A stretch of 63,956 nt of DNA, filler included, from Aduncisulcus paluster (Eukaryota): NCBI GenBank assembly GCA_024181965.1. It is 7 parts of 7 records of this genome, joined end to end, with 100 filler letters (N's around TTAATTAATTAA, not from the genome) between each part and the next. Parts side by side here need not be neighbours in the genome. Positions count along the whole stretch, not along the records: positions 42,920 to 49,438 come from BQXS01011223.1; 6 more parts are not named here. The stretch is one strand, 5' to 3'. The translations under genes and the position numbers were made by a program. Below the pieces are notes generated by a model that saw only the letters and a program-made list of their open reading frames with translations, was not told where the DNA came from and did not search any database. Position 1 is the first letter of the stretch. Each line of letters opens with the position of its first letter. Below, piece by piece: positions 7,540 through 56,858 of this stretch.

Positions 7540-8207
7540 TTACTCTTCAATGTGGGTCTTGTTGGAAGTGTAGATACCATCAAGGAACATACGCTTATCC
7601 TTACCCTTGACACGGAGAATTTGAGTGATACGAGAAGCTATAAACATATTATTAAGATTGAATTAAACAAAGAAAGAAATAAGTATTACTACAGATAAAA
7701 AGAAAAGAAAAAAACTAAAATACACTAAAATAAAGAATACATACCACAGAGAGAGACATCTTTAACATCATTTCCCTCAAGAATAACTTGATCCTTAACC
7801 TCAGTTCCCTCAGAAACCTTAACACCGGGGATCATCTTGATTGGGTAAACCTCTTTACCACCAATGAAGTTACGGATCTCAATCATACGACCTTCCTGTT
7901 TGATAGCGAAAATGATGGGGAAATGGTTGTAAACAAGACGCATTTCATAACGGAATCCCTTGGTGACACCGGTGAACATGTTCTTGATGTGCTTGCAGAT
8001 AGTACGGATGATAGAGTTCTCAAGACTACGGCCAAACCATTTGCTTACAACAATCTTACTTCCTTTCTTCTCGATTCCGACACGAGAGTGAGTGAAATCT
8101 TGGCGGAGAGTACCACGTGGTCCCGTAACGCTAATCTTACGCTTGCCGAGTTCGACGGTAACGTTCTTGGGGATATCGATGGTTTCGGATTTAATAAAAG
8201 AAGGCAT
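7540..8207 (-). CDS. RPL9: 60S ribosomal protein L9 (uL6), two exons: 8207-7745 and 7637-7540
   Basis: GVTKGFRYEMRLVYNHFPI; a 107-nt GTATGT...TTTATAG intron (7638-7744) restores the C-terminus ASRITQILRVKGKDKRMFLDGIYTSNKTHIEE*. Confidence 0.96.
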
Positions 8208-8709
8208 TCGATCCACACAGTTCCACAATCCAAGCATAGCGAATCACGATAGATATCAAATACTCAGACTATCTATTTTTAGGTTTGGATTATTTTACAT
8301 AATAATAAAATGAAATATAATATATTTATAGAAATAATAGATATATAATCATATTTTGAATGTAAATTGGTTTCAGAGATGCGTAGTTTGAAAGATAATT
8401 TCTTAGAAATTAGATCTATTTCTATAGATTTTATGGGGCAACATTGGAATGAACTTTCATTATTTTTTCATTTTCACGATTTTTTTTGGTTTGATTTGTG
8501 TTAATTAGTTGATAATAGTTTGATTTTCACTGTTGTTTCATAATTGATTTCGATCTGTATTTTTTCCATTCATTCACTGGCCAAATGAGAATTATTTCTT
8601 CGAAATAAACAATGTAAAAAATCATTTGTAGTTTTTCAGTAATAATACAGTCAATATATAGAGAATAGATGATTTATTATTGAATAGTTAAACAATGATG
8701 GTGATCAGA

Positions 8710-13467: not shown

Positions 13468-13647
13468 TCAATCAAAACGGAAGAGGTGAGTCAAAGAAGT
13501 CGAAAATTCAAATAAATAGTATCATCTTGGATGAATTTGATATTTTGAAAAAGATTTACTTAAGTTTTAAATGATTTCAAAACAAATAATATACAAATGT
13601 GGCTCAGAGAGTGTGAATATTGAAACTCCGACAAGACAAGAGAAATT

Positions 13648-13747
13648 NNNNNNNNNNNNNNNNNNNNNNNNNNNNNNNNNNNNNNNNNNNNTTAATTAAT
13701 TAANNNNNNNNNNNNNNNNNNNNNNNNNNNNNNNNNNNNNNNNNNNN
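13648..13747. other. Artificial contig linker N44-TTAATTAATTAA-N44 (also 19881-19980, 24978-25077, 42820-42919, 49439-49538, 56759-56858)
   Basis: Six identical 100-nt spacers with stops in all six frames; genes are truncated at their edges. Confidence 0.98.
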
Positions 13748-17172: not shown

Positions 17173-18460
17173 ATGAGTACATCAACAGCTTTACAAATCG
17201 TGGAACCGAAATTTATTCATAAAGGAGGTAGCGATTGTTGTCCAATTCCTAGAGATGGTCCCAATATCATGAGTGTAGAGGTTCCAGCCATCAAAACAAA
17301 GAGCAAAACCGGGAAAGAAGAATTTGAAGCATTCGAAGCACAACTTATGATGGAAGGAGGGGAAAATGAAGGCTTGTTTTCTGATATCTCCATTCCTTTC
17401 TCCTCGTCTTCCTCAATGAAAGGTGCTTATATCTGTCCATTTGAAACAGAATATCTTATCTTCACTTTGACATCTTCAAAGGGTGAGAAAACATCCAAGA
17501 AATACGAGTTTCAAGAATTTGAAGAAAATTGGTTTTTCCTTCCTGTTGATCTTCCTGATGTTGTTAAATGTGAGATTACAGGGAAAGGAACAGAGGAAGA
17601 GTGTTTTTGGATCCTCTCCCTCGTTTTCATTAGAGAAGAAACTCCTGAAGAAATCAAATCTCGTGAAGCCAGAGAGAAACTATGATCTGAAGCTCCAGCT
17701 GTGAAACCAGAGTTTGTTAAGGAAGGAAGGAGAGATTCTATTCCCATTCCACAAGATGATCCAAAGCTTGTAGATCCTTCATTCTCAATCGTTAAGTGCA
17801 AGGATGATTCGAGGNNNNNNNNNNNNNNNNNNNNCTGATGTTGTTAAATGTGAGATTACAGGGAAAGGAACAGAGGAAGAGTGTTTTTGGATCCTCTCCC
17901 TCGTTTTCATTAGAGAAGAAACTCCTGAAGAAATCAAATCTCGTGAAGCCAGAGAGAAACTATGATCTGAAGCTCCAGCTGTGAAACCAGAGTTTGTTAA
18001 GGAAGGAAGGAGAGATTCTATTCCCATTCCACGAGATGATCCAAAGCTTGTAGATCCTTCATTCTCAATCGTTAAGTGCAAGGATGATTCGAGGAGTGTG
18101 GAATCTACGCAGTATGATCGGAGTTCAGAAGCACAAAGAATGTTAAAAGGGGAAGGTGATGTATCCTTATCCCATCTTTCTATCCATTTCCCATCACCTA
18201 GTCCTATGAAAGGTGCTTATATCTGTGTGGATGAGCATTGGAGTTCACCCTCTCTTCTCTTCACTTTCACGCTTTCTGATGGTAAGAAAACATTCAAGAA
18301 GTATGAATTCATAGAACCCAAACATTATTATGAATGGCACTTCCTTCCTATTGATTTGGATAACGTTGTTTTGTGTGAGATTGAAGGGAAAGGAGCGTGG
18401 GTTGTTACAAATAGTCGAAAGTTCAAGATCTACTCCCTTGTATTTACTAAGCCAGAGTGA
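17173..18460 (+). pseudogene. Lineage-specific two-repeat protein family member with a nonsense TGA at 17683 (gap duplication 17835-18094)
   Basis: Internal repeat IPIPRD..SxxKGAYIC..FT..KKYEF..W.FLP.DL..VV.CEI.GKG; TGA aligns with TGG (REKLW) in the paralog at 51167. Confidence 0.75.
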
Positions 18461-19880: not shown

Positions 19881-20407
19881 NNNNNNNNNNNNNNNNNNNN
19901 NNNNNNNNNNNNNNNNNNNNNNNNTTAATTAATTAANNNNNNNNNNNNNNNNNNNNNNNNNNNNNNNNNNNNNNNNNNNNGTTCCAATAGAACCATAATC
20001 ATTCGAAGATGTCACAAGCCTTTTGGTAGTGGTCAACAATAAATAAATATTCAAGAAAACAATTCAACTTATCGTCATACTCAGCATTGAGATTTCACAA
20101 AACAACTTACTTAAAAAGGAATAAAATGTAACATGCAGAAATTCGAAGCAGCAAAATTTCAGAAGTGACAGGCGATTCATTACTCTCACATTCAGCATCA
20201 TAGGCACATGACCTGTTTATATAGTCCTGAATCATCAGAGAGAGAGAGAGAGACCATCTTGGGTCAGGTTGAATAGTCTATCGTTTATAAATCCATTACT
20301 CTGAAGTTCAGATCCAATGCACATGAATATATAAATATATATATCACAGATCCATCAATATAACATCAAGTAGAAATAGAACAAACCAAATAAGATAAGA
20401 TATAATA

Positions 20408-24977: not shown

Positions 24978-25077
24978 NNNNNNNNNNNNNNNNNNNNNNN
25001 NNNNNNNNNNNNNNNNNNNNNTTAATTAATTAANNNNNNNNNNNNNNNNNNNNNNNNNNNNNNNNNNNNNNNNNNNN

Positions 25078-26175: not shown

Positions 26176-27060
26176 TTATCTTAATTCTCGCTCTAAATAA
26201 TCACAAAATACTTTAGCAATTTCAACATCTGACTGAATTGAAGGATCTTCCTCCACATCATGCCTTGATCGTGTTTTTTCAGTAATAGCCAAGAAGCGAG
26301 ATCTAACAGAGTGGATTTCTGATGGTTGGATTCGTCTTGAAGGTATTTCAATAAATTTGGAGAAAGAATCGATTTTAATAGGAACTTTTATGATTGTACT
26401 AGCCATTGAAACTGCAGAAACGACCTCTGACACAATAACTCCCGTAACTCTTGACATATTCGAAAGAAAACTTGAATCTGTTGATTTTAATGCTCTAGTA
26501 GATCTGACTGGTACAATTTTCCCAGCAGTTTGAAATGAATTTTGAATTTGAGAATAGGGAATCAAATCTTCAAGTGGCACCTCTGATGAGGACAAAACAT
26601 CAATTTCAAAACATGGCTGATCCCACTTGTGATCATCACATGGTTCTTCTAATCTCAGAGCTATATCTAAAAAGACCTTTTCATCGTATCGTTTCAAAGT
26701 TTTAACTGCATTCTCTTTCGCAATCAGAAATGGGGAATTACACCAAACCAAGCAATGGGGCTGTTTTGCTGCTCGAGATAAACAATATAATTCATAACGG
26801 AAGCTTCGACTAAGATTACAAGCATCAATAATTACAAGAGTCTTAGGATCTCCCAAATGTCTATGAACAGCATCACGAAGCGATTTGTTGAGCGATATTT
26901 CACTTATTCCATTCATTAAAGCTTCTCCTGATGATACTCCAAAGTCCTCGGGTTGGATATGAAGAATTGTTGAATATACTTTTTCAAAATGCTTTTTTAT
27001 CGACCGTGAAACTGAGGATTTTCCAGTACATAAGATACCACAGACAATTATTAAAGGCAT
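26176..27060 (-). CDS. KTI12: KTI12 (Elongator-associated P-loop protein, PSTK-related)
   Basis: MPLIIVCG..CTGKS, IIDACNLSRSFRYELYCLSR, RLEEP....WDQP. Confidence 0.85.
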   Translation of the reverse strand: MPLIIVCGILCTGKSSVSRSIKKHFEKVYSTILHIQPEDFGVSSGEALMNGISEISLNKSLRDAVHRHLGDPKTLVIIDACNLSRSFRYELYCLSRAAKQPHCLVWCNSPFLIAKENAVKTLKRYDEKVFLDIALRLEEPCDDHKWDQPCFEIDVLSSSEVPLEDLIPYSQIQNSFQTAGKIVPVRSTRALKSTDSSFLSNMSRVTGVIVSEVVSAVSMASTIIKVPIKIDSFSKFIEIPSRRIQPSEIHSVRSRFLAITEKTRSRHDVEEDPSIQSDVEIAKVFCDYLERELR

Positions 27061-42819: not shown

Positions 42820-43157
42820 NNNNNNNNNNNNNNNNNNNNNNNNNNNNNNNNNNNNNNNNNNNNTTAATTAATTAANNNNNNNNNNNNNNNNNNNNNNNNN
42901 NNNNNNNNNNNNNNNNNNNCATCTACCCTTCTATGTGGGCTTGGAAGAGGCCTGTGTATAAGAGAAGCGACTTGTGTATCGTCTTACAGCTGGAATTTAA
43001 TCCAAAAGAAAGAACCAAAGAGCAAGGGTAGTCACCTAAGCTTTTAGTTCTTTCAGCCAAAAAACACCCAAAAATCTCGCAAATTAAACCCAATTTTACT
43101 GAAACAATTTATCGTAAAATCCTAGTGTTTAAAAATTTAGCGAGAACCTGTTACGTC

Positions 43158-43728
43158 CTATAAATAAACACAGCCTTATTGATATTCTAAAACAATGCAA
43201 TGATGAAAAATCGACATCTAAACTATATTATGATTATAAAGAATCTATTCTTTCCGTTTTGAAAAATAAATTATTTTTTTGATAAGATTGATCCTAATAC
43301 ATTTTCGATTTATTTTCTCGAAATCCTTTTATTTTGCTTGTTTTGGCCATAATGAATGACTTATGACAAAGAAAAAAAGAAAAAGGCTCTAGAAATGCGT
43401 CGCTCTGGAGATTCTTATTGAAAGATTGCGTCTAAGCTGAAGATTTCGTGGAATGCTGTTTATTCATAGTGTAATCCAGAGAGAAGGCACTCTAAAAAGG
43501 GCAAAATAACAAAAGATGTGTTTTTTAAAGCAGTTCAAACATATCCAACAGCTTCTCAAACTATCATAGCAAAAGAACTAGGGGTTACACAAGGTGCTGT
43601 CAGTAAGATGAGACGCCGATTCGAATATGTGCAGAGAACGTTAACAATCAAAACTGTGTCTAGTTGCATAGATTAAAAGTAAATTATTTAACAATTCCAA
43701 TCAGTGATCAAAACTATGTCTAGCCGCA
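43158..43728 (+). mobile_element. Decayed IS630/Tc1/mariner-superfamily element (transposase N-terminal double HTH, 43356-43676, two in-frame stops)
   Basis: MTYDKEKKKKALEMRRSGDSY*KIASKLKISWNAVYS*CNPERRHSKKGKITKDVFFKAVQTYPTASQTIIAKELGVTQGAVSKMRRRF; imperfect inverted repeat 43158-43181 / 43645-43671; direct copy 43707-43728. Confidence 0.7.
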
Positions 43729-43887
43729 ATAATAAAATGTTATTTAGCCAGAAAAATTAGTTTGAGAAAAGTTCATAAAGCAAGCTTCCCCAGTGGTGGC
43801 CAGGCAGGAAAATCAGGGTGATTACCAAAAAATCACCGATTTGCCTTAATTAGATCTTTCCCCCAATGGCACAAAAAAATATATTCG

Positions 43888-45771
43888 ATGATAAAGCAAA
43901 ATATTTCTGTGGCTTCCTTACTTATAATTCTGCTCCTTTTCTTATTGAAATTTGAATTGACCGATGGTTGCAATCTTCAAGTTCAGATATTCCAGATATC
44001 TGATGTTCACGGTTGGGTAGATGGTCATACTCATAATACAGACCCAACTTTGCCACCTTTTAATGGCGATGCGGGTGATCTTGTCTCTTTTATGGAACAT
44101 GCCCAATCTCAAGCCGATGCTCAAAAAATACCCCTCTTGTTTTTTGATTCTGGTGATGATGTTCAAGGCACTGGGTTATCCGATGCCGATTCGCCAGTTG
44201 GTTCATCGATTTGGGAGTTTTTCTCTGAATTTGGATTAGATGGTGTTACAATGGGTAATCATGATGATGGTGAGGTTGATAGTATGCCTTGGCTTTACTC
44301 TCATATTGATGATCTGTTTCCAGGTTCTTATATTACTAGTAATCAGAGATATAAGAATTCCTCTGATATTTTTGGAAATTCCAAATATAAGACCATTGAG
44401 ATTGAAGTGACGCATACAGAAACTCATGAAACTATCTCAATTCAAGTTGGTGTGGCTGGAGTTTTGTATGCTGATGCTGGTGTGGGAGATGTTATTGTTA
44501 TTCCCTCGGCTGAACTTATTTTGGAGGATGACTTTAGTGATTTTGTGACAAATCACGATATATTAATTATTCTTGCTCATATTTCATCCGATGATCCTGA
44601 AATAGAGACACTTAGACAAGGAATTCGTGAGATTGCTGCTAAGAAGCCAATATTGTTTTTGACTGGGCATAGTCATCAGTGGAGGAGTGGTGTTTGTCCA
44701 TACGGTGAAGGCACAGATCTTCAGTCATTTTATAGTGAACCAGGATGTTATCTCGAAGGTCTTGGAAAGATTGATTTGTGCTTGTCAGAAACTCCTGAAG
44801 GCATTATCTTTGAATCGACTCCCACTGTTGAGCAAATTGTAATGAATCGTGATATTCTTGTTACTGAAGCTGGATATGAATCATATTCTACATTCCTTAC
44901 CCCCAAAGGTGAAGAGATTCAAACTCAGATGGATCTCAAGAGCCAAGAACTTGGTCTTAATAACAGACTAGGATGCTCTAAACATTTATACGATAGCTCT
45001 CTTCTTCCTACTGAAAAGGAGTCCTTCTTGCGACTTTATAACCATTCGATTCTTCCTGCTTATTTGTATCCTTCCATTGTTCCTTACCTTCCATCCCCCG
45101 TGGAACCTATCCTCTCTATCATGAACAGTGGGAGCATCAGAGGTGACATGTATGAGGGTCCTGTCCTCGTAAATGATCTCTACACGATCATTCCATTTGA
45201 CAACTACTTTTGCTACACATGTAATGTATGTGGAACCCTATTAACCACCGTGCTAAACACCATGAACACTCCCGATAGACCTAATCATTACATGTTAGCC
45301 ATATCAGTCGATGACCTTGATCCCGATGCTGATTATTGTATCGTTGCAAGCAGTTATGATGCTGGCCTCATTCAAACGAATCTCCAGCAATTAGATCCCG
45401 ACTCTAATGTCTGTGCCAACTCTCCAGAAGAATGGTTGATGCCTGCTGTTCCCAACAGTAGTGAAAGCATGAAGTCAATCTTGGTCAAATATATGCAAGA
45501 ACAAATGACATGTGATAATCTCATTGTGAGAGTTCCCGGTTCACCTTCTCATCTTGTTGCTGCCGATGAAGCCGATGTTTGGTGGGAGAAACACAAAAAT
45601 GAAGGAATAATCAGTGGTCTCTTTATTTCTATATTATTGTTCATTCTTTTGTGTATATTTGGCTTCTGGATCATCTCCTCTTGGCTTAAGGATATAGTCC
45701 AATCTAAACAAGCAGAGGGAATGATCACAAGTCGATCAGTTAGTTTTGCTGATTTCCAAGGCCTTGCCTAA
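43888..45771 (+). CDS. Membrane-anchored 5'-nucleotidase/apyrase-family metallophosphoesterase
   Basis: Signal peptide; SDVHG, DSGD..QGTGLSD, GNHD, GHSH; NSGSIRGD..PFDN C-domain; C-terminal TM helix. Confidence 0.9.
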   Translation: MIKQNISVASLLIILLLFLLKFELTDGCNLQVQIFQISDVHGWVDGHTHNTDPTLPPFNGDAGDLVSFMEHAQSQADAQKIPLLFFDSGDDVQGTGLSDADSPVGSSIWEFFSEFGLDGVTMGNHDDGEVDSMPWLYSHIDDLFPGSYITSNQRYKNSSDIFGNSKYKTIEIEVTHTETHETISIQVGVAGVLYADAGVGDVIVIPSAELILEDDFSDFVTNHDILIILAHISSDDPEIETLRQGIREIAAKKPILFLTGHSHQWRSGVCPYGEGTDLQSFYSEPGCYLEGLGKIDLCLSETPEGIIFESTPTVEQIVMNRDILVTEAGYESYSTFLTPKGEEIQTQMDLKSQELGLNNRLGCSKHLYDSSLLPTEKESFLRLYNHSILPAYLYPSIVPYLPSPVEPILSIMNSGSIRGDMYEGPVLVNDLYTIIPFDNYFCYTCNVCGTLLTTVLNTMNTPDRPNHYMLAISVDDLDPDADYCIVASSYDAGLIQTNLQQLDPDSNVCANSPEEWLMPAVPNSSESMKSILVKYMQEQMTCDNLIVRVPGSPSHLVAADEADVWWEKHKNEGIISGLFISILLFILLCIFGFWIISSWLKDIVQSKQAEGMITSRSVSFADFQGLA

Positions 45772-46141
45772 ATAGTTCCATTTGTTCATTTTACAATATA
45801 TCGATATACTTTCCTGTCCAGTTTTATATACAAGGTATCATTAGAATGGATTGCTCTTATTGATATTCTTTAACATCCTTACCTTTTTTTATATATTTTG
45901 ATCCTATTGCAGGCCATACATACTGAGATTATTGCTAATGTTAGGATACCGCTTACTGAAAATCTTGCTCAATCATTCATCGTTATATCATCAGAATATT
46001 GAGATTTTGACAATGTTGATTTTTTATTTTTGAAAATAAATAGGTCAGTCGACGAAAACCTCAATATTAATAAATGAAAAGGATAGATTTTAAAATTTGC
46101 GACTAGAATTATACATCAAACCATTTTTTTCCTAAAATTAG

Positions 46142-46214
46142 GCTTCGCTGGTCTAGTCGGTATGACGTCACGCTCACATCGTGAAGGTCCCGAGTTCGAT
46201 CCTCGGGTGAAGCA
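46142..46214 (+). tRNA. trnV: tRNA-Val(CAC)
   Basis: Acceptor GCTTCGC/GTGAAGC, anticodon arm TCACG-CTCACAT-CGTGA, T-loop TTCGATC, downstream T-run. Confidence 0.96.
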
Positions 46215-46434
46215 TATTTTTAGATTCACTTCAAGAATTACCCTGCGTTTAATATTTGTAAATGATAATTATTGTTATTATTGTTGTTTTTATTATCTTT
46301 CAAAATATTTTGCCAATTTTATGATTACAGATCGCTCCACAGAATTTTTTAGGGCAATTCGTCCAAAATCAGGATTTGAGACCACTTCATTTATTTCTTC
46401 TGAGATTTTTAATTTTTACGAAGTTATCTAATTT

Positions 46435-46548
46435 GTATGCGTGATTATTTTTGTTTTTTTTTACCCTTTTCTCTTGTATACGTTGAGTTTTTCTAATTAT
46501 TAACGAAATGCTTTTATTATTTTCATTATTCATCTTTCATTCAATTAG
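46435..46548 (+). other. Putative 5'UTR intron of the PiT gene (114 nt)
   Basis: GTATGC donor; CTAAT/ATTAAC; CATTCAATTAG acceptor 11 nt before ATG 46560. Confidence 0.62.
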
Positions 46549-46559
46549 ATTCACATTAA

Positions 46560-48225
46560 ATGGATTACGAAGATAGAGTTGAACTTGGTGTATTTATCAC
46601 CATTATGATTGTTGGAATGGCCTTTTCCTATGCCATTGGTTGTAATGATCTGGCAAATTGTGTTGGTGCTGCTGTCGGAAGCAGATCCCTTTCAATGATT
46701 CAAGCCGTAATTTGGGGATCTCTTTTTGAGTTGTTAGGAACGATCACTCTTGGTCGAGGAGTCGCAGCTACAATCGGAAAAGGTATCATTGATTCAGATC
46801 TTTTTATCGGTCATGAACAAGAGTATATGAATGGTATGTTAGCTGCCCTTGTTGGTTCTACAGTGTTGATGCTCGGTGCCACCTTTATGAAATTACCTGT
46901 CAGTTCCACACATGCTGCAGTTGGTGGAATTCTAGCCTTTGGACTTGTATTTGATAAGAATGGAATAGATTGGAGTGTTATTGGAAAGATTGCCATCTCA
47001 TGGCTCGCCAGTCCTATTCTGGGTGGAGTTATGGGAGCAATATTCACATTTATCTGCAAAAATACTGTCATGACGACAAAACGTCCAGCTTTAGCCTCAT
47101 TAAATCTCTTCCCCTGGCTGTGTGGCTTCACATTAGCTACAATAACCTTCAGCATTATGTTATCCGAAGTTGATTCTCTCGCTTGGTATTATAGCTTAGC
47201 CATTTCCATTGGTCTATGGATTTTAATTGCCACCATTTGTAACTATACACTTCGTATCCATTTCTTTAAACACTACTATACCCGTTCAAGTGAATATGAC
47301 GATATTATCACAAGTCCTGGGGATATTCTTGTCCTTCCGAAATGTTTCCTAAAGCACATGCAATTTCCTGATGGAAGTACGATGGTTATCAATAGACGCC
47401 GTGTCGATGTTCAGACAATGACCGACGCTTCCGAGGTTAGTGATTTCCTTGAGGCCTCTGAGTTTGAAGGAGAAAAGTCTAATAGTGAACCCGAAAATGA
47501 GAAAAAAGAGGATGAGAAAGAAGACGTGAAAGAAGACGAGAAAGAAGACGATATTGAAAGTGAAATCATGGATCAAGAGGAATCACATGAAGACGATGTG
47601 GATGCCGATGGTAATATTATTGCCCCTCCTGTGGGGAAAAACGATAAGAAGGAGAAAGGATGTTCATGTCTTCATGATGATGAACCTGCGGGACCTACCG
47701 TCCTGATGAATGAATTTGCTGAGCGTGGTGCCGAATGTTATTTTGTCCCTAACCAACTCCTCGTGTCCTTGCTCGTTGCCTTCAGCCATGGTACTAACAG
47801 TACAGGCAACGCCACTGGTCCGATGATGGGTGCACTGTATGCCTACCAAGAGAAACTGGGCGAAGATGTCGAAACCCCTATATATATCCCTCGCTGCATG
47901 TGCCTTCCTTATCCTTGGACTTGCAACACTCGGAAACTTAGTTATCGAGACCATTGGAAAAGGAATTTCAAAGATTGACCCCATTGACGGTTTTGTTGTT
48001 CAAATGTCAACGATTATTACAACCCTTGTGTGCTCAAACCTTAATATCCCTGCTTCTTCCACTCACATTTTAATTGGTGCTGTAACGGGTGTCGGAATGG
48101 CAAGAAGTGGAGCTTCTAGCGTTAATTGGAAAATGCTCGGTAAGATCGGCATATCTTGGTTGCTTACCTTGCCAATTTCTGGATTTATTAGTATAGCTAT
48201 ATATTCGATGTTAAATTTGTTGTAA
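46560..48225 (+). CDS. PiT/PHO4-family inorganic phosphate transporter, with a +1 frameshift near 47880
   Basis: GCNDLAN and PVSSTHAAVG (repeat 1); FSHGTNSTGN and PASSTHILIGAV (repeat 2, the latter in the +1 ORF 47830-48225). Confidence 0.9.
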
Positions 48226-48464
48226 AGATAGATTTCTCAATTCGTTGATTCATATTTTGTATGGTACATTTTTGATAATAACTAAAAATCAATATCTACA
48301 CAATATCTCATCATCCATATTTATGATGATTATATCGATATACGCCTCAAAACGTAAGACCAGCCACAAAAGAGTAAATATATCACAAATTCGAGATAAG
48401 AATTCTTTTATTTGAATGAATTTTGCGATAAATCATCAAAAAGGCACGCTTAGGAAAATCCAAG

Positions 48465-48518
48465 ACATCTCAGAAATAACACCTGCCAGTAGCATTGAAG
48501 TTAGTTCTTCACAGATAT
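48465..48518 (-). promoter_or_regulatory. Type II SECIS element in the 3'UTR
   Basis: AUAUC-U-GUGA-AGAACUAACUUC-AA-UGCU-ACU-GGCA-GGUGUUAUUUCU-GA-GAUGU: RUGA/GA core, 12-position helix II (10 pairs), unpaired AA, apical mini-stem; AATAAA at 48412-48407. Confidence 0.8.
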
Positions 48519-48553
48519 AAAATATAACTAAGCCATGTGAATTAACGGTTCAT

Positions 48554-48769
48554 CTATTCCTCTTTTTTGGGAGGCGATCTCTTTTCCTCTTCTGGGAAAG
48601 GATAAGTAGCTCCAGTTGTGTATGTCTGTGGGGGAGCAGAATAAGAGCAAGTAGCTCGAGTTGGGCAGCAAATGGCGGCAAGATATCAACACTTGGAAAT
48701 ACAAAAGAAAAATCAATAATAAAACGATAAACAGAAAAAAATATCAATATAAAGAACGAATCATACCAT
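48554..48769 (-). CDS. Candidate 46-aa selenoprotein MCUYLAAICCPTRATCSYSAPPQTYTTGATYPFPEEEKRSPPKKEE (exon 1 ATG 48769-48767; intron 48766-48692; exon 2 48691-48554)
   Basis: ATG|GTATGA...T-rich...TTTCCAAG|TGT TGA TAT; in-frame TGA 48688-48686; TAG stop; SECIS ~40 nt downstream. Confidence 0.75.
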
Positions 48770-48948
48770 ATTGATTTATATAGTCTTCAAATTCACAAAA
48801 TCAAGGGAAGTGGATCTGATTGAAATTTTTTCTGTTTCCTGATGGGCCAATCTTAGCCACCAGATTTTATCCAAATTATCACATTTTTTTATATCATTCT
48901 ATTATTAAATGCGGATCAAAGAACATATTCTTGATGTTATTTTTTTTA

Positions 48949-49438
48949 TTATTCAAAGAAAGAAGCTTCAGATTCTTCCTCTTCATTTGTAAAGAATTGA
49001 AGTTTTGGAGCCTCAACCTCCATGGTTTTGTGTTCAATATCTTTCTCTCCTGTTTTCCACCTTTGTCTATATACTTGTTTATCCTCTTCATCTCCTTTCG
49101 CAATTCTATCTGCCAATTTAACAGCGAAAGGGGTGTCATCTTTCTCAATAATATCTTCAATAGTCCTTCTTTTCCCAGAATTATCAAGTTGAGAAGGTTC
49201 CTTATCTAAAAATAGACCCTTTTGTTCAATTTTTGTTTTCCCAACCATTACAACCCCTTGCGAGGATATTTTCATTCCTTTCTTCGCTTTCTTTGCAAGA
49301 CGTCGCATCTCTTGGATTTTTTTTGCTCTTTTTGTAAACTCATCCTCTCCTTCATCTTTCCCATTTTCTTTTTCTTTCTCATCATCTATATTTATCTCAA
49401 GAGATACCTCTTTTTCTCCCTTCCGAACAAGAATATCA
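48949..49438 (-). CDS. C-terminal fragment of a charged protein, possibly DEAD-box helicase DBP4/DDX10
   Basis: Open to the contig edge; KLADRIAKGDEEDKQVYRQRWK resembles the DDX10 tail (recalled, not aligned). Confidence 0.4.
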
Positions 49439-49539
49439 NNNNNNNNNNNNNNNNNNNNNNNNNNNNNNNNNNNNNNNNNNNNTTAATTAATTAANNNNNN
49501 NNNNNNNNNNNNNNNNNNNNNNNNNNNNNNNNNNNNNNA

Positions 49540-51166: not shown

Positions 51167-52287
51167 ATGTCGTTATCGTCAAAAATTCCAATCGTAGAAC
51201 CTGTGTTTATTCATGAAGGATTTAGAGATTGCTGTCCAATTCCCCGCGATATCTCCAATATTAAGAGTGCTGAGATACCAAGAATCAAAGCAATAGATGG
51301 AATCAAAAATCAATTTGAAGAAGGATACGATATGAGTTTAAATGCACAAAGGATGATGAAAGGAGATGGTAGTTATGGAAAATATTCTCGTATTTACATC
51401 CCATTTTCTTCATCTTCCACAATGAAGGGGGCTTATATCTGTATTGATGGTCATTCTCTTCCTCCTTCTTATCTAATTTTCACCTTCACTTCTTCCCGGG
51501 GTTATAAAACATCCAAGAAATACGAATTTCCTGGATTTGGTCGTTGTCATTGGTATTATCTTTCGATTTCTCTACCTGATGTTGTTCTGTGTGAGATTAC
51601 AGGGAAAGGAAGAGAGGAAGAACATTTACGCCATTTTAATATCCTTTCTCTCGTTTTCCTTCGGGAAGAAACTTCTCAAGAAATCATTTCTCGTGAAGTC
51701 AGAGAGAAACTATGGTCTGAAGCTCCAGTTGTGAAGCCAAAGTTTGTTAAGAAAGGAGATTGGATGTCCTCTGGTAGAAAATCCATTCCCATTCCACGAG
51801 ATGATCCAAAGATTATAAATCCTGCATTCTCTATGATTAAGTGCAAGGATGCTTCAAAGAGTAAGGAATCTACGCATTATGATTATCATAATATGATAAG
51901 AGTTCAGATGCTCAAAGAATGTTGAAAGGAGAATACTGTATCATCTCATCCCATATTTCCATTCCATTTTCATCACCTTATCCTGTGAAAGGTGCTTTTA
52001 TCTGCGTGGGAGAGCACATTAGTTCTCCTTCTCTTCTCTTCACTTTTATTCATTCTGATGGTATGAAAACATACAAGAAGTATGAATTCACCAAGATGGT
52101 CATTAAACATGAATTTGAATGGCTCTTCCTTCCTATTGATTTGGAGAATGTAATTTTATGTGAGATTGAAGGGAAAGGAACATGGAAAAAAAAAGAAAGT
52201 CAATGGTTCCGAATCGAATCTCTCGTTTTTACAATGCCAGAAGAAATTATTGTAGCTGAACGATTATCTCTATTTCCATGGAAATAA
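51167..52287 (+). pseudogene. Lineage-specific two-repeat family member frameshifted by a 14-nt insertion at 51878-51891
   Basis: Colinear with 17173-18460; removing TATGATTATCATAA restores STHYDKSSDAQRMLKGE. Confidence 0.78.
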
Positions 52288-53195
52288 GCAAGGATGGTAT
52301 TGGGAATTAAGGAAACTCGTGTATAAAAAAATGTGGTGAAGAAGCAGTGCAAACAAAATTCTATTTTCACCACTTGGATCGCTGACATTACTCACTGGAA
52401 AAGAAATACAAATTCAACATGTTCTCATACGTGATAGATTGGATTCTCACCCTCTCCTCACCGTCTCAACACCTGCTTGTTAGGATGCCATTGGATGAGG
52501 AAAGATCGTTGAGACAATCCATGTATGATCTGATTGAACGCAGGTGTAGAAGCCTTATCTGAACAAGACGCAAGTTGTTCGTTTGCAATGTATATGATAA
52601 GGAATAATGTCATACAGGAATGGAAAAATTTGATAAGAAAGAAGAAGAAGATACATGGGAATGCAGTAATGGGAGATTTCATGAGAATCTGATGATAAAG
52701 CATATTCTCTGCTATGAAAGCGAGATTACAACTGAAAATTCAAAATTTATCTGAAAAAAATGAGATTTCAAAAACACGGTTCTATTTTTAGAACATCTAT
52801 TTTTAGAAAATCAAAAAAATAATTCATGATATTGACCAATTATTTTCAACCAAATCCTGTATATTCTAATTTGTTTTTGGTTAATTTGGCCTCAATAAAC
52901 AAATCTTGTTGCTTTTCCAACAAAATCACAAACTTCATTCTATCAATGCCAATTCTAAACATTTCGAAAACATTTTTAAAATCCTAACTTCAAGAGAACA
53001 AAAGAGAAGAGCAAAATCTAAAAATAGATATTCTAAAAATAGATCAAAACAACAAATTCTAAAACGTATCATCAATTTATTAGGTTGTAGCTTGAACACT
53101 AGAATAAATACAACAATATTCTTGCATAAAACACCATTTCCAAAAGAGAAATTGGTTCGATATTTTTTGCTGTATTTTCCAGGCTTTTTGATTAC

Positions 53196-53268
53196 GCCTA
53201 CCTAGCTCAGTCGGTAGAGCGTTCGGCTCTTAACCGAACGGTCGTGGGTTCGAGCCCCACGGTGGGCG
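53196..53268 (+). tRNA. trnK: tRNA-Lys(CTT)
   Basis: GCCTACC/GGTGGGC acceptor, TAGCTCAGTCGGTAGAGC, TTCGG-CTCTTAA-CCGAA, GGTTCGAGCC. Confidence 0.97.
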
Positions 53269-53594
53269 ATTTTACGACTTGTTCACTCAACATGAGGGAA
53301 GTGAAGGATGAGAACTCAATAGATGCTTTTTCTACGAGCCTATGAGCTTGAGAATCTTTCATGCAAAGGATGATCTGCCCCATTGTTTCGAAACACCATA
53401 TATTTATAAGACATTCAACAACGTCAGACCCTTTAATTCTTCCACTTTAGACCTTAGGCGTCTTTCTCGTTAGGTTTAGATGTCGTGTATCACAATTTCT
53501 ATCACCGAAGAGTCAATATAAATGTTCAGGCCTTTTTTATTATTGAGGTCGTTATCGACAATTATTAACAAATATTGACATTGAAGCATTTCAA

Positions 53595-56758: not shown

Positions 56759-56858
56759 NNNNNNNNNNNNNNNNNNNNNNNNNNNNNNNNNNNNNNNNNN
56801 NNTTAATTAATTAANNNNNNNNNNNNNNNNNNNNNNNNNNNNNNNNNNNNNNNNNNNN

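Follow-up and report, generated by a model that had tools for sequence, protein, structure and literature searches.

An unannotated, spliced micro-gene of Aduncisulcus paluster with an in-frame UGA at codon 3, a candidate site of selenocysteine insertion

Analysis of a 63,956-nucleotide stretch of DNA from Aduncisulcus paluster (hereafter the window) revealed a two-exon micro-gene that is real, new and unannotated. The coding part of its first exon is a single ATG, its third codon is UGA, and 43 sense codons beyond the UGA are followed by a 3′ UTR containing a hairpin with the layout of a type II selenocysteine insertion sequence (SECIS) element. We tentatively read the UGA as a selenocysteine (Sec) codon, a possibility that we hold with less than even confidence. 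The fuller proposal, a 46-residue selenoprotein of a new family made from one of the most abundant small mRNAs, with the SECIS present only on a longer 3′-end isoform, appears somewhat unlikely to us.

[quoted passage not shown] Its genome note describes an Illumina assembly with an N50 of 4.6 kb, 11,743 predicted introns, a stranded poly(A) RNA-seq run and an annotation pipeline composed of BRAKER2 and TransDecoder (PMC9933649). The window is made of separate contigs with spacers (N44 + 12 nt + N44) in between, and the locus sits on the minus strand of the piece at positions 42920-49438 (BQXS01011223.1). Its neighbours are a PiT phosphate-transporter gene, which matches an NCBI protein assigned to A. 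paluster with 100% identity, and, upstream, a minus-strand gene whose ORF ends at 48949.

The gene model begins with an AT-rich, TATA-like box, TATATAAA (48775-48782), that lies 5 nt upstream of the ATG and may act as a promoter or initiator. The ATG itself (48767-48769) is followed directly by GTATGA and is the sole ATG near the junction of the spliced RNA. A 75-nt intron (48692-48766, GTATGA...CCAAG) then separates it from exon 2; in the intron, T accounts for 61% of the letters and AG occurs nowhere but at the 3′ end. The coding part of exon 2 (48557-48691) consists of TGT, the candidate Sec codon TGA (codon 3, 48686-48688) and 43 sense codons in the frame of the ATG, and is closed by a TAG at 48554-48556. 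Further downstream lie the AT-rich run TTATATTTTATATC (48514-48527), a possible proximal 3′-end signal that overlaps the 5′ strand of helix I of the hairpin, and, past the hairpin, AATAAA at 48407-48412, a distal hexamer resembling a poly(A) signal. Many stop codons in the window have AT-rich runs after them that are similar to TTATATTTTATATC. The preliminary description of this locus had placed the start codon, the T-rich intron lacking an internal AG, the reading frame of exon 2 with its TAG, and the AATAAA exactly where they were found.

Both an intron close to the ATG and a TATA-like box fit the traits of expressed genes in the window, where about 5 of 22 long ORFs have such a box within about 20 nt of the ATG. 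An intron of similar style, T-rich and beginning with GTATGT, occurs at about 7745-7640 (minus strand) in the uL6/RPL9 ribosomal-protein gene (7725-8237, minus strand). Elsewhere in the window ATGGTATG was matched five more times, never at a gene start, and the two of these five matches that were inspected encode in-frame GWYG motifs.

Splicing was assessed with the contigs of four sequencing runs that cover the stretch: a DNA run that is probably the source (X1), a run of the same sample guessed to be RNA (X2), and two runs from another study under another organism label, the RNA status of which was likewise guessed (X3 and X4). X2 was treated as RNA-derived because it holds a GT..AG joined form that is missing from the DNA run. 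This form is represented by one X2 contig (depth 272, with a shorter side of 22 letters), in which the exon-1 side runs up to the junction and 48767 is joined to 48691; the 75 nt skipped have the ends CT..AC on the plus strand and GT..AG on the minus strand. No joined form was present among the contigs of X1. The joint agrees to the base with the intron that had been predicted without data, so that the 48767/48691 junction was borne out. An unspliced X2 contig was also found (48679-48796, depth 320), together with a 2,185-nt X2 contig (depth 607) that extends from beyond 49400 down to exactly 48767. Because this long contig arrives from upstream and stops at 48767, transcription reading through from the upstream gene may account for some of the spliced copies.

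The TGA at codon 3 had been taken as genuine rather than a misread TGG, TGT or TGC, and this held: contigs of the DNA and RNA runs agree, with no alternative letter at or above 10% in the X1 DNA or X2 contigs and none in any run. A mini-intron of 30 nt (GTGAAG..ACTAAC..CAG) inside the hairpin was also considered and ruled out, as this segment is unspliced in the X3 contig.

Several features point to strong expression. Contig depth is a poor measure that cannot rank genes or parts of one gene, and the excess of X2 depth at the locus is therefore taken only as a strong hint: in successive 57-nt bins over 48441-48725 the summed depth was 9k, 60k, 230k, 173k and 24k, compared with depths of 329 for the PiT contig and 607 for the upstream contig. 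X2 contributed 143 contigs to the stretch (108 with at least 99% identity, 35 with 95-99%); among the 8 of these that were listed, none inside the locus was longer than 60 nt, and the many short contigs hint at very deep coverage. The suggestion of high expression is seconded by X3 and X4, which within a 2.9-kb query contain the micro-gene locus only, as a 272-nt X3 contig (48393-48663) and a 197-nt X4 contig (48480-48676), both with zero mismatches; parts of the stretch lacking X3 or X4 cover were not counted as evidence. The micro-gene is probably very strongly expressed and its RNA abundant. The ATG is not demonstrated in the abundant form of this RNA, the junction contig having a depth of only 272.

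The X3 contig is continuous between 48663 and 48393 and spans the hairpin, linking the ORF to the hairpin and the AATAAA region on a single molecule. It ends 14 nt downstream of the hexamer, at 48393, close to the poly(A) site proposed near 48390, with no poly(A) tail observed. Over the hairpin, the X2 contig (48450-48509) has a depth of 5,250 versus 60k-230k summed over the ORF, and summed X2 depth falls from 60k-230k to about 5k-9k near 48514-48527. Because of this drop and of the AT-rich run at 48527-48514, most RNA copies may end before or inside the hairpin, although the depths give only a hint of this. Transcription ending short of the hairpin, which had been named as evidence against Sec insertion, therefore does not apply to the X3 contig but may apply to most copies.

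To evaluate coding potential, a codon log-odds score (in-frame versus off-frame) was trained on 10,720 codons from 18 long ORFs in the window. It gave +13.4 bits for the ATG frame, +1.5 for frame 2 and -13.2 for frame 3, where true in-frame windows of 43 codons have a mean of 14.1 (sd 7.8). In 464 putatively non-coding strand-windows a score of 13.4 was reached by 0.72% of single frames and by 2.2% when the best of three was taken; in 5,000 dinucleotide shuffles of the segment the corresponding values were 0.86% and 2.6%. A score restricted to synonymous choices was 9.2 for the ATG frame (in-frame mean 8.3; off-frame mean -1.4, sd 6.4), and a crude codon adaptation index (CAI), with the uL6/RPL9 and Arf genes as reference, was 0.63 compared with 0.48 and 0.42 for the other frames. 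The log-odds, the synonymous-only score and the crude CAI all favour the ATG frame as the coding-like one, which is the frame that had been predicted. A real UGA, present in DNA- and RNA-run contigs, with a coding signal downstream of it is what is looked for in a selenoprotein gene.

No other frame of any length starting with ATG was found in the spliced RNA. Frames 2 and 3, at +1.5 and -13 bits and neither with an ATG, were ruled out as coding, as was an upstream ORF running through the junction, all three frames being closed just upstream. The 129 nt after the TGA contain no TAA, TAG or TGA in any frame, compared with 6.4 (sd 1.5) in shuffles, none of which (0/20,000) reached zero. With none of the three frames closed in this segment, an open frame of 43 codons carries little weight by itself.

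The hairpin (48465-48518, minus strand), identified by pattern scan and folding and contained in the X3 contig (X2 covers 48450-48509), has the order AUAUC / UGU / GA / 12-nt strand / AA / UGCU-ACU-GGCA / 12-nt strand / GA / GAUGU. Helix I (48518-14/48469-65) pairs AUAUC with GAUGU over 5 bp; GUGA (48512-09) lies 174 nt after the TGA; helix II (48508-497/48483-72) comprises 12 nt with 10 of 12 positions paired; an unpaired AA (48496-95) lies apical to it, below a mini-stem and loop (48494-84, UGCU-ACU-GGCA) of 4 bp and 3 nt; and GA (48471-70) forms the 3′ side of the core. The consensus of the SECIS core, as given in part of PMC3753652, is UGAN on the 5′ side and KGAW on the 3′ side. On the 5′ side, GUGA-A at 48512-48508 agrees with R-UGA-N. 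On the 3′ side, U-GA-G at 48472-48469 fits K but has G in place of W. The apical part agrees in its 12-nt helix II, unpaired AA, extra helix and small loop, the limits on helix length (about 11-13 nt for helix II) being those of our own scanner.

Searches of 2.3 kb, 421 nt and 131 nt returned no SECIS family of Rfam at E≤10, and the Rfam search that had been suggested for the hairpin region thus failed to support a SECIS. Matches to any other Rfam family were at chance level (DdR17 at E 7; LhrC; mir-9201; RFPL3-AS1_2 at E 0.08-0.4; MIR478; mir-2209), none of them pointing to a known non-coding RNA. The hairpin is also energetically modest: the structure drawn by hand has -8.5 kcal/mol and the minimum free energy fold, of similar shape, -9.8; a 76-nt stretch around it shows no excess stability over shuffles (z 0.12), and in the context of the UTR its pair probabilities are 0.2-0.7. 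The idea of a structured RNA was rejected, with z scores of 0.15 (minus strand) and -0.80 (plus strand).

In scans of both strands of the window, strict criteria, which were tuned after the fact on the candidate, gave 2 matches including the candidate versus 0.7 in 40 dinucleotide shuffles; adding the mini-stem gave 1 match versus 0.1, and looser criteria 6 versus 5.3. From strict to loose, a SECIS-like pattern is expected by chance 0.7-5.3 times per 127 kb, and these counts against shuffles put the probability of a chance match within the 161-nt 3′ UTR at roughly 0.001 to 0.007. Of the type II SECIS described initially, the GUGA, the 12-nt helix II, the AA, the mini-stem, the GA and the spacing were confirmed, but the 3′ core is UGAG, no Rfam model matched and the fold is weak. 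The hairpin is not classed as a canonical SECIS because both the W of KGAW and a covariance-model match are wanting. Non-metazoan SECIS elements are the hardest to detect for every method, according to the part of PMC3753652 consulted.

A serious though doubtful alternative is that the spliced, polyadenylated and abundant RNA is not translated beyond Met-Cys, being non-coding or regulatory, or begins inside what is here called the intron and so contains no AUG, with a hairpin that arose by chance or is an unrelated kink-turn. In such an RNA a UGA at codon 3 would often be expected, and the missing SECIS family match, the non-consensus 3′ core, the lack of excess stability and a micro-peptide for which no homologue was found are all in keeping with it. 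So is the depth of the junction contig, 272 versus 10^4-10^5 summed over exon 2; moreover, the unspliced contig is interrupted at the k-mer that begins at 48709, which would be consistent with an additional 5′ end, near 48708, lacking the ATG. If the RNA is untranslated, however, three independent coincidences must be accepted: that the frame with coding-like codon usage is precisely that of the ATG (p about 0.007-0.009), that an ATG stands in phase, and that a SECIS-like layout occurs at a suitable distance (about 0.001-0.007). The complete absence of stop trinucleotides from a run of 129 nt (0/20,000 shuffles) would be a further coincidence. Such an RNA would also belong to no Rfam family of any kind and would not be unusually structured (z 0.15).

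How UGA is otherwise read in this genome bears on a second alternative. The 28 long ORFs of the window end in TAA (15), TGA (11) or TAG (2), and A. paluster uses the standard genetic code. Past the stop, the frame remained open after 2 of 20 TGA codons, 2 of 25 TAA codons and 1 of 9 TAG codons in the window. TGA as a general sense codon was accordingly ruled out, since it ends 11 of the 28 long ORFs and frames after it are not more often open; the hexamitin code (TAR=Gln) was rejected because the stops of the window ORFs are mixed. One other TGA, at 17683-17685 (plus strand), may indicate some leakage at UGA or may simply mark a pseudogene.

We consider it unlikely that the ATG frame is translated with its UGA passed by other means than Sec, through near-cognate read-through (Trp, Cys, Arg) or a start just downstream, to yield an ordinary small Cys-rich peptide above an idle hairpin. 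The coding-like ATG frame and the hint that most copies end before the hairpin would both suit this explanation, and the TGA at 17683-17685 aligns with a Trp of a paralogue, in a frame that continues open and similar over 165 codons or more past it. Against it, the same stop statistics show TGA to be an ordinary stop in the window (11/28), with post-TGA frames no more often open (2/20) than those after TAA (2/25) or TAG (1/9); UGA-UAU is not among the read-through contexts known to us; and an in-frame AUG after the UGA is absent from exon 2. It is highly improbable that there is no independent gene at all and that the intron and exon 2 are the 3′ UTR of the upstream minus-strand gene (ORF end 48949): the 2,185-nt X2 contig (depth 607) does come from beyond 49400 to exactly 48767, with a depth about equal to those of the spliced (272) and unspliced (320) continuations taken together, but a contig spanning two genes proves no single transcript, the summed depth of exon 2 (10^4-10^5) is far above 607, the exon 2 locus is the sole part of the stretch in X3 and X4, and a TATA-like box lies just upstream of the ATG.

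Insertion of Sec would require a dedicated machinery, and relatives of A. paluster indicate that this is plausible. In the parts of the reports drawn on here, Spironucleus salmonicida has tRNA-Sec, PSTK, SepSecS, a SelD-NifS fusion, a Sec elongation factor and three SelW paralogues, and Giardia and Trichomonas are described as lacking the Sec trait (PMC3916229, PMC6397501); Monocercomonoides exilis is likewise described, in part of its report, as possessing Sec machinery (PMC6759080). Given this patchy spread among metamonads, present in Spironucleus and Monocercomonoides and missing in Giardia and Trichomonas, a Sec trait in A. paluster is plausible by analogy. For the UGA-coded SelW of Spironucleus, the portion of the source concerned reports no canonical SECIS (PMC2874811). 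No mention of selenium use in Aduncisulcus was found in the titles, abstract openings and passages covered. Within the window, tRNA-Val and tRNA-Lys are the only tRNAs. The only gene of the KTI12/PSTK family there, at 26176-27060 (minus strand), was considered as PSTK and ruled out: it is KTI12-like (Pfam KTI12, 147 bits), its best solved relative is a KTI12, and with the NCBIfam PSTK models it reached 39 bits (cut-off 290) and 16 bits (cut-off 382).

The product had been said to belong to no recognised selenoprotein family, and no homologue came to light to contradict this: a word-indexed search gave no candidate, phmmer against 1.84 billion representatives gave 0 matches at E≤0.001, and two degenerate-pattern scans of metagenome contigs revealed no relative of the micro-peptide. 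Accordingly, no homologue with Cys or Sec at the UGA position was found in these searches, in which a query of 45 residues has little power. The lack of a homologue says little either way because the query is both short and of low complexity.

The Sec reading is supported by the exact junction, the TGA in DNA- and RNA-run contigs, the coding-like frame, the SECIS-like layout, the linkage of ORF and hairpin in the X3 contig and the occurrence of Sec in Spironucleus. In the model that we propose, transcription would start a few nt upstream of the ATG, beside the TATA-like box. The 75-nt intron is removed, which in the X2 joint places the ATG directly before TGT TGA, and the RNA runs on, at least in part, through the kink-turn hairpin to about 48393, as in the X3 contig. 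The ATG frame would then be translated and, in transcripts bearing the hairpin, the UGA at codon 3 would be decoded as Sec, with the hairpin serving as a SECIS of type II that is compact and departs from the consensus. The predicted product is a 46-residue peptide, MCUYLAAICCPTRATCSYSAPPQTYTTGATYPFPEEEKRSPPKKEE. Removal of Met would leave adjacent Cys and Sec at the N-terminus; next would come a short, hydrophobic segment rich in Cys, and then a charged, probably disordered tail rich in Pro and Thr. The likeliest chemistry would be a vicinal selenenylsulfide redox centre or a metal-binding centre on a small, possibly S-acylated peptide.

The Sec reading, a prediction from sequence, comes at a cost: the hairpin is weak and non-consensus and most copies may lack it, and we know of no natural precedent for Sec at codon 3. 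Of the selenoprotein gene first described, the gene model, the junction, the TGA and the frame have stood, but the hairpin matched no SECIS family in Rfam, its core is UGAG, it lacks excess stability, and no homologue was found.

Should the UGA encode Sec, the peptide would define a new selenoprotein family and would show the Sec trait in free-living fornicates, from which it would be the first selenoprotein to be described; the mechanism would be the known SECIS-dependent recoding and only the protein family would be new. It would contain the earliest Sec position known to us, and would show SECIS-dependent recoding to be capable of operating two codons past the start. The choice of poly(A) site would set the selenium-dependent output, and a lineage-specific SECIS form would become available as a search query, none having been found in Spironucleus in the parts of the reports covered. 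Even if Sec is not used, the locus produces an apparently very abundant spliced transcript that is expected to escape the BRAKER2/TransDecoder pipeline (PMC9933649), since an exon of 3 nt holds the start codon and codon 3 is a stop. The locus thus offers a test case for micro-genes hidden in the genomes of protists.

Comparison with known systems places the candidate in context. The SelW proteins of Spironucleus salmonicida and S. barkhanus, also from Fornicata, are likewise small and UGA-coded with no canonical SECIS detected, as far as the relevant parts of PMC2874811 and PMC3916229 go; their Sec was assigned there by alignment of the UGA with known SelW, whereas no homologue of the micro-peptide was found. 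With type II SECIS genes, as described in part of PMC3753652, the locus shares an in-frame UGA followed by a coding-like frame and a 3′-UTR kink-turn hairpin with GUGA...GA, a 12-nt helix II, AA and a 4-bp mini-stem. It differs from them in its 3′ core (UGAG, with W unmatched), the absence of a covariance-model match, a weak helix, a Sec at residue 3 of 46 in no known family, and a hairpin that may be missing from most transcripts.

The hairpin can also be compared with kink-turn motifs of the box C/D type, which are bound by L7Ae-family proteins. It resembles these in its 5-bp stem, 3-nt bulge, tandem G.A pairs and second helix, and its GUGAAGA...CUGA is reminiscent of the C and D boxes; unlike them, it is located towards the 3′ end of a polyadenylated transcript, has a paired interior and matches no snoRNA family. 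At the protein level, SELENOK and SELENOS are small disordered selenoproteins with a Pro-rich charged segment and a single Sec near one terminus. The predicted micro-peptide is similarly short, Pro-rich, charged and probably disordered with one Sec near a terminus, but here that terminus would be the N-terminus, there is no full transmembrane helix, and phmmer revealed no sequence similarity. Finally, thioredoxin reductase carries a vicinal Cys-Sec centre in its C-terminal Gly-Cys-Sec-Gly, and in the micro-peptide adjacent Cys and Sec would likewise permit a selenenylsulfide; whereas the centre of thioredoxin reductase is located on the flexible C-terminus of a flavoenzyme, that proposed here would occupy the N-terminus of a micro-peptide.

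Across the 129 nt at 48557-48685 (-) of the micro-gene (a two-exon gene on the minus strand), TAA, TAG and TGA are absent from all frames. Dinucleotide shuffles of the same stretch carried 6.4 stop trinucleotides (sd 1.5), and none of 20,000 was free of them. Purine runs within this segment are always entered from C, and the segment contains a direct repeat of 15 nt, CAACT(C/G)GAGCTACTT.

The neighbouring PiT phosphate-transporter gene (46560-48225, +) has an ORF that is interrupted by a frameshift within a (TA)n run at 47872-47890. Relative to the window, contigs from the same-sample run X2, which is probably RNA, contain an extra TA after position 47878 that restores the PiT frame, and the contig from the DNA run contains an extra TATA. 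The protein annotated by NCBI (P0001, 504 aa) spans the frameshift with an artificial intron, which removes a conserved membrane segment that is retained in the homologue P0002.

The X2 contig covering the PiT gene extends 254 nt beyond its TAA stop (48223-48225) and ends at 48479 (region 48226-48479, +/-). It therefore overlaps the 3′ portion of the micro-gene, which is convergent with PiT, and takes in some of the hairpin, the SECIS-like element in the 3′ UTR of the micro-gene (48465-48518, -). Either the 3′ ends of the two convergent genes overlap, or the X2 run could contain some DNA; both readings would fit this contig.

Under the strict SECIS-like pattern, whose criteria were fitted to the hairpin after the fact, the single further match in the window is at 13531-13590 (+). 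This match reads GGATGA..AA..GA, has no mini-stem and is at chance level.

The window itself does not represent a continuous chromosomal segment: its contigs are separate and have been joined through spacers of N44, 12 nt and N44 (13648-13747, 19881-19980, 24978-25077, 42820-42919, 49439-49538 and 56759-56858), and sequence past 49438 is not truly upstream of the micro-gene. Scaffold gaps of 20 N occur at other places, and the one at 17815-17834 has identical sequence repeated on its flanks. An in-frame TGA was observed at 17683-17685 (+) in one copy of a two-domain gene family, at the place where the paralogue at 51167-51925 (+) encodes Trp. Beyond this TGA the frame stays open and paralogue-like for at least 165 codons; the two-domain family itself gave no Pfam match. 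This copy could be a pseudogene, or the TGA could stem from an error in the assembly or be leaky, with UGA read as Trp.

Two tRNA genes were located: tRNA-Val(CAC) at 46142-46214 (+), which closely precedes the PiT gene, and tRNA-Lys(CTT) at 53195-53269 (+). The uL6/RPL9 ribosomal protein gene (7640-8240, -) has a T-rich intron of ~105 nt (GTATGT...TATAG), a handy local model for the splice signals of A. paluster. A full-length P-loop protein encoded at 26176-27060 (-) belongs to the KTI12 family, which also includes PSTK, the kinase of the Sec pathway; within this family the protein is not PSTK-like but KTI12-like.
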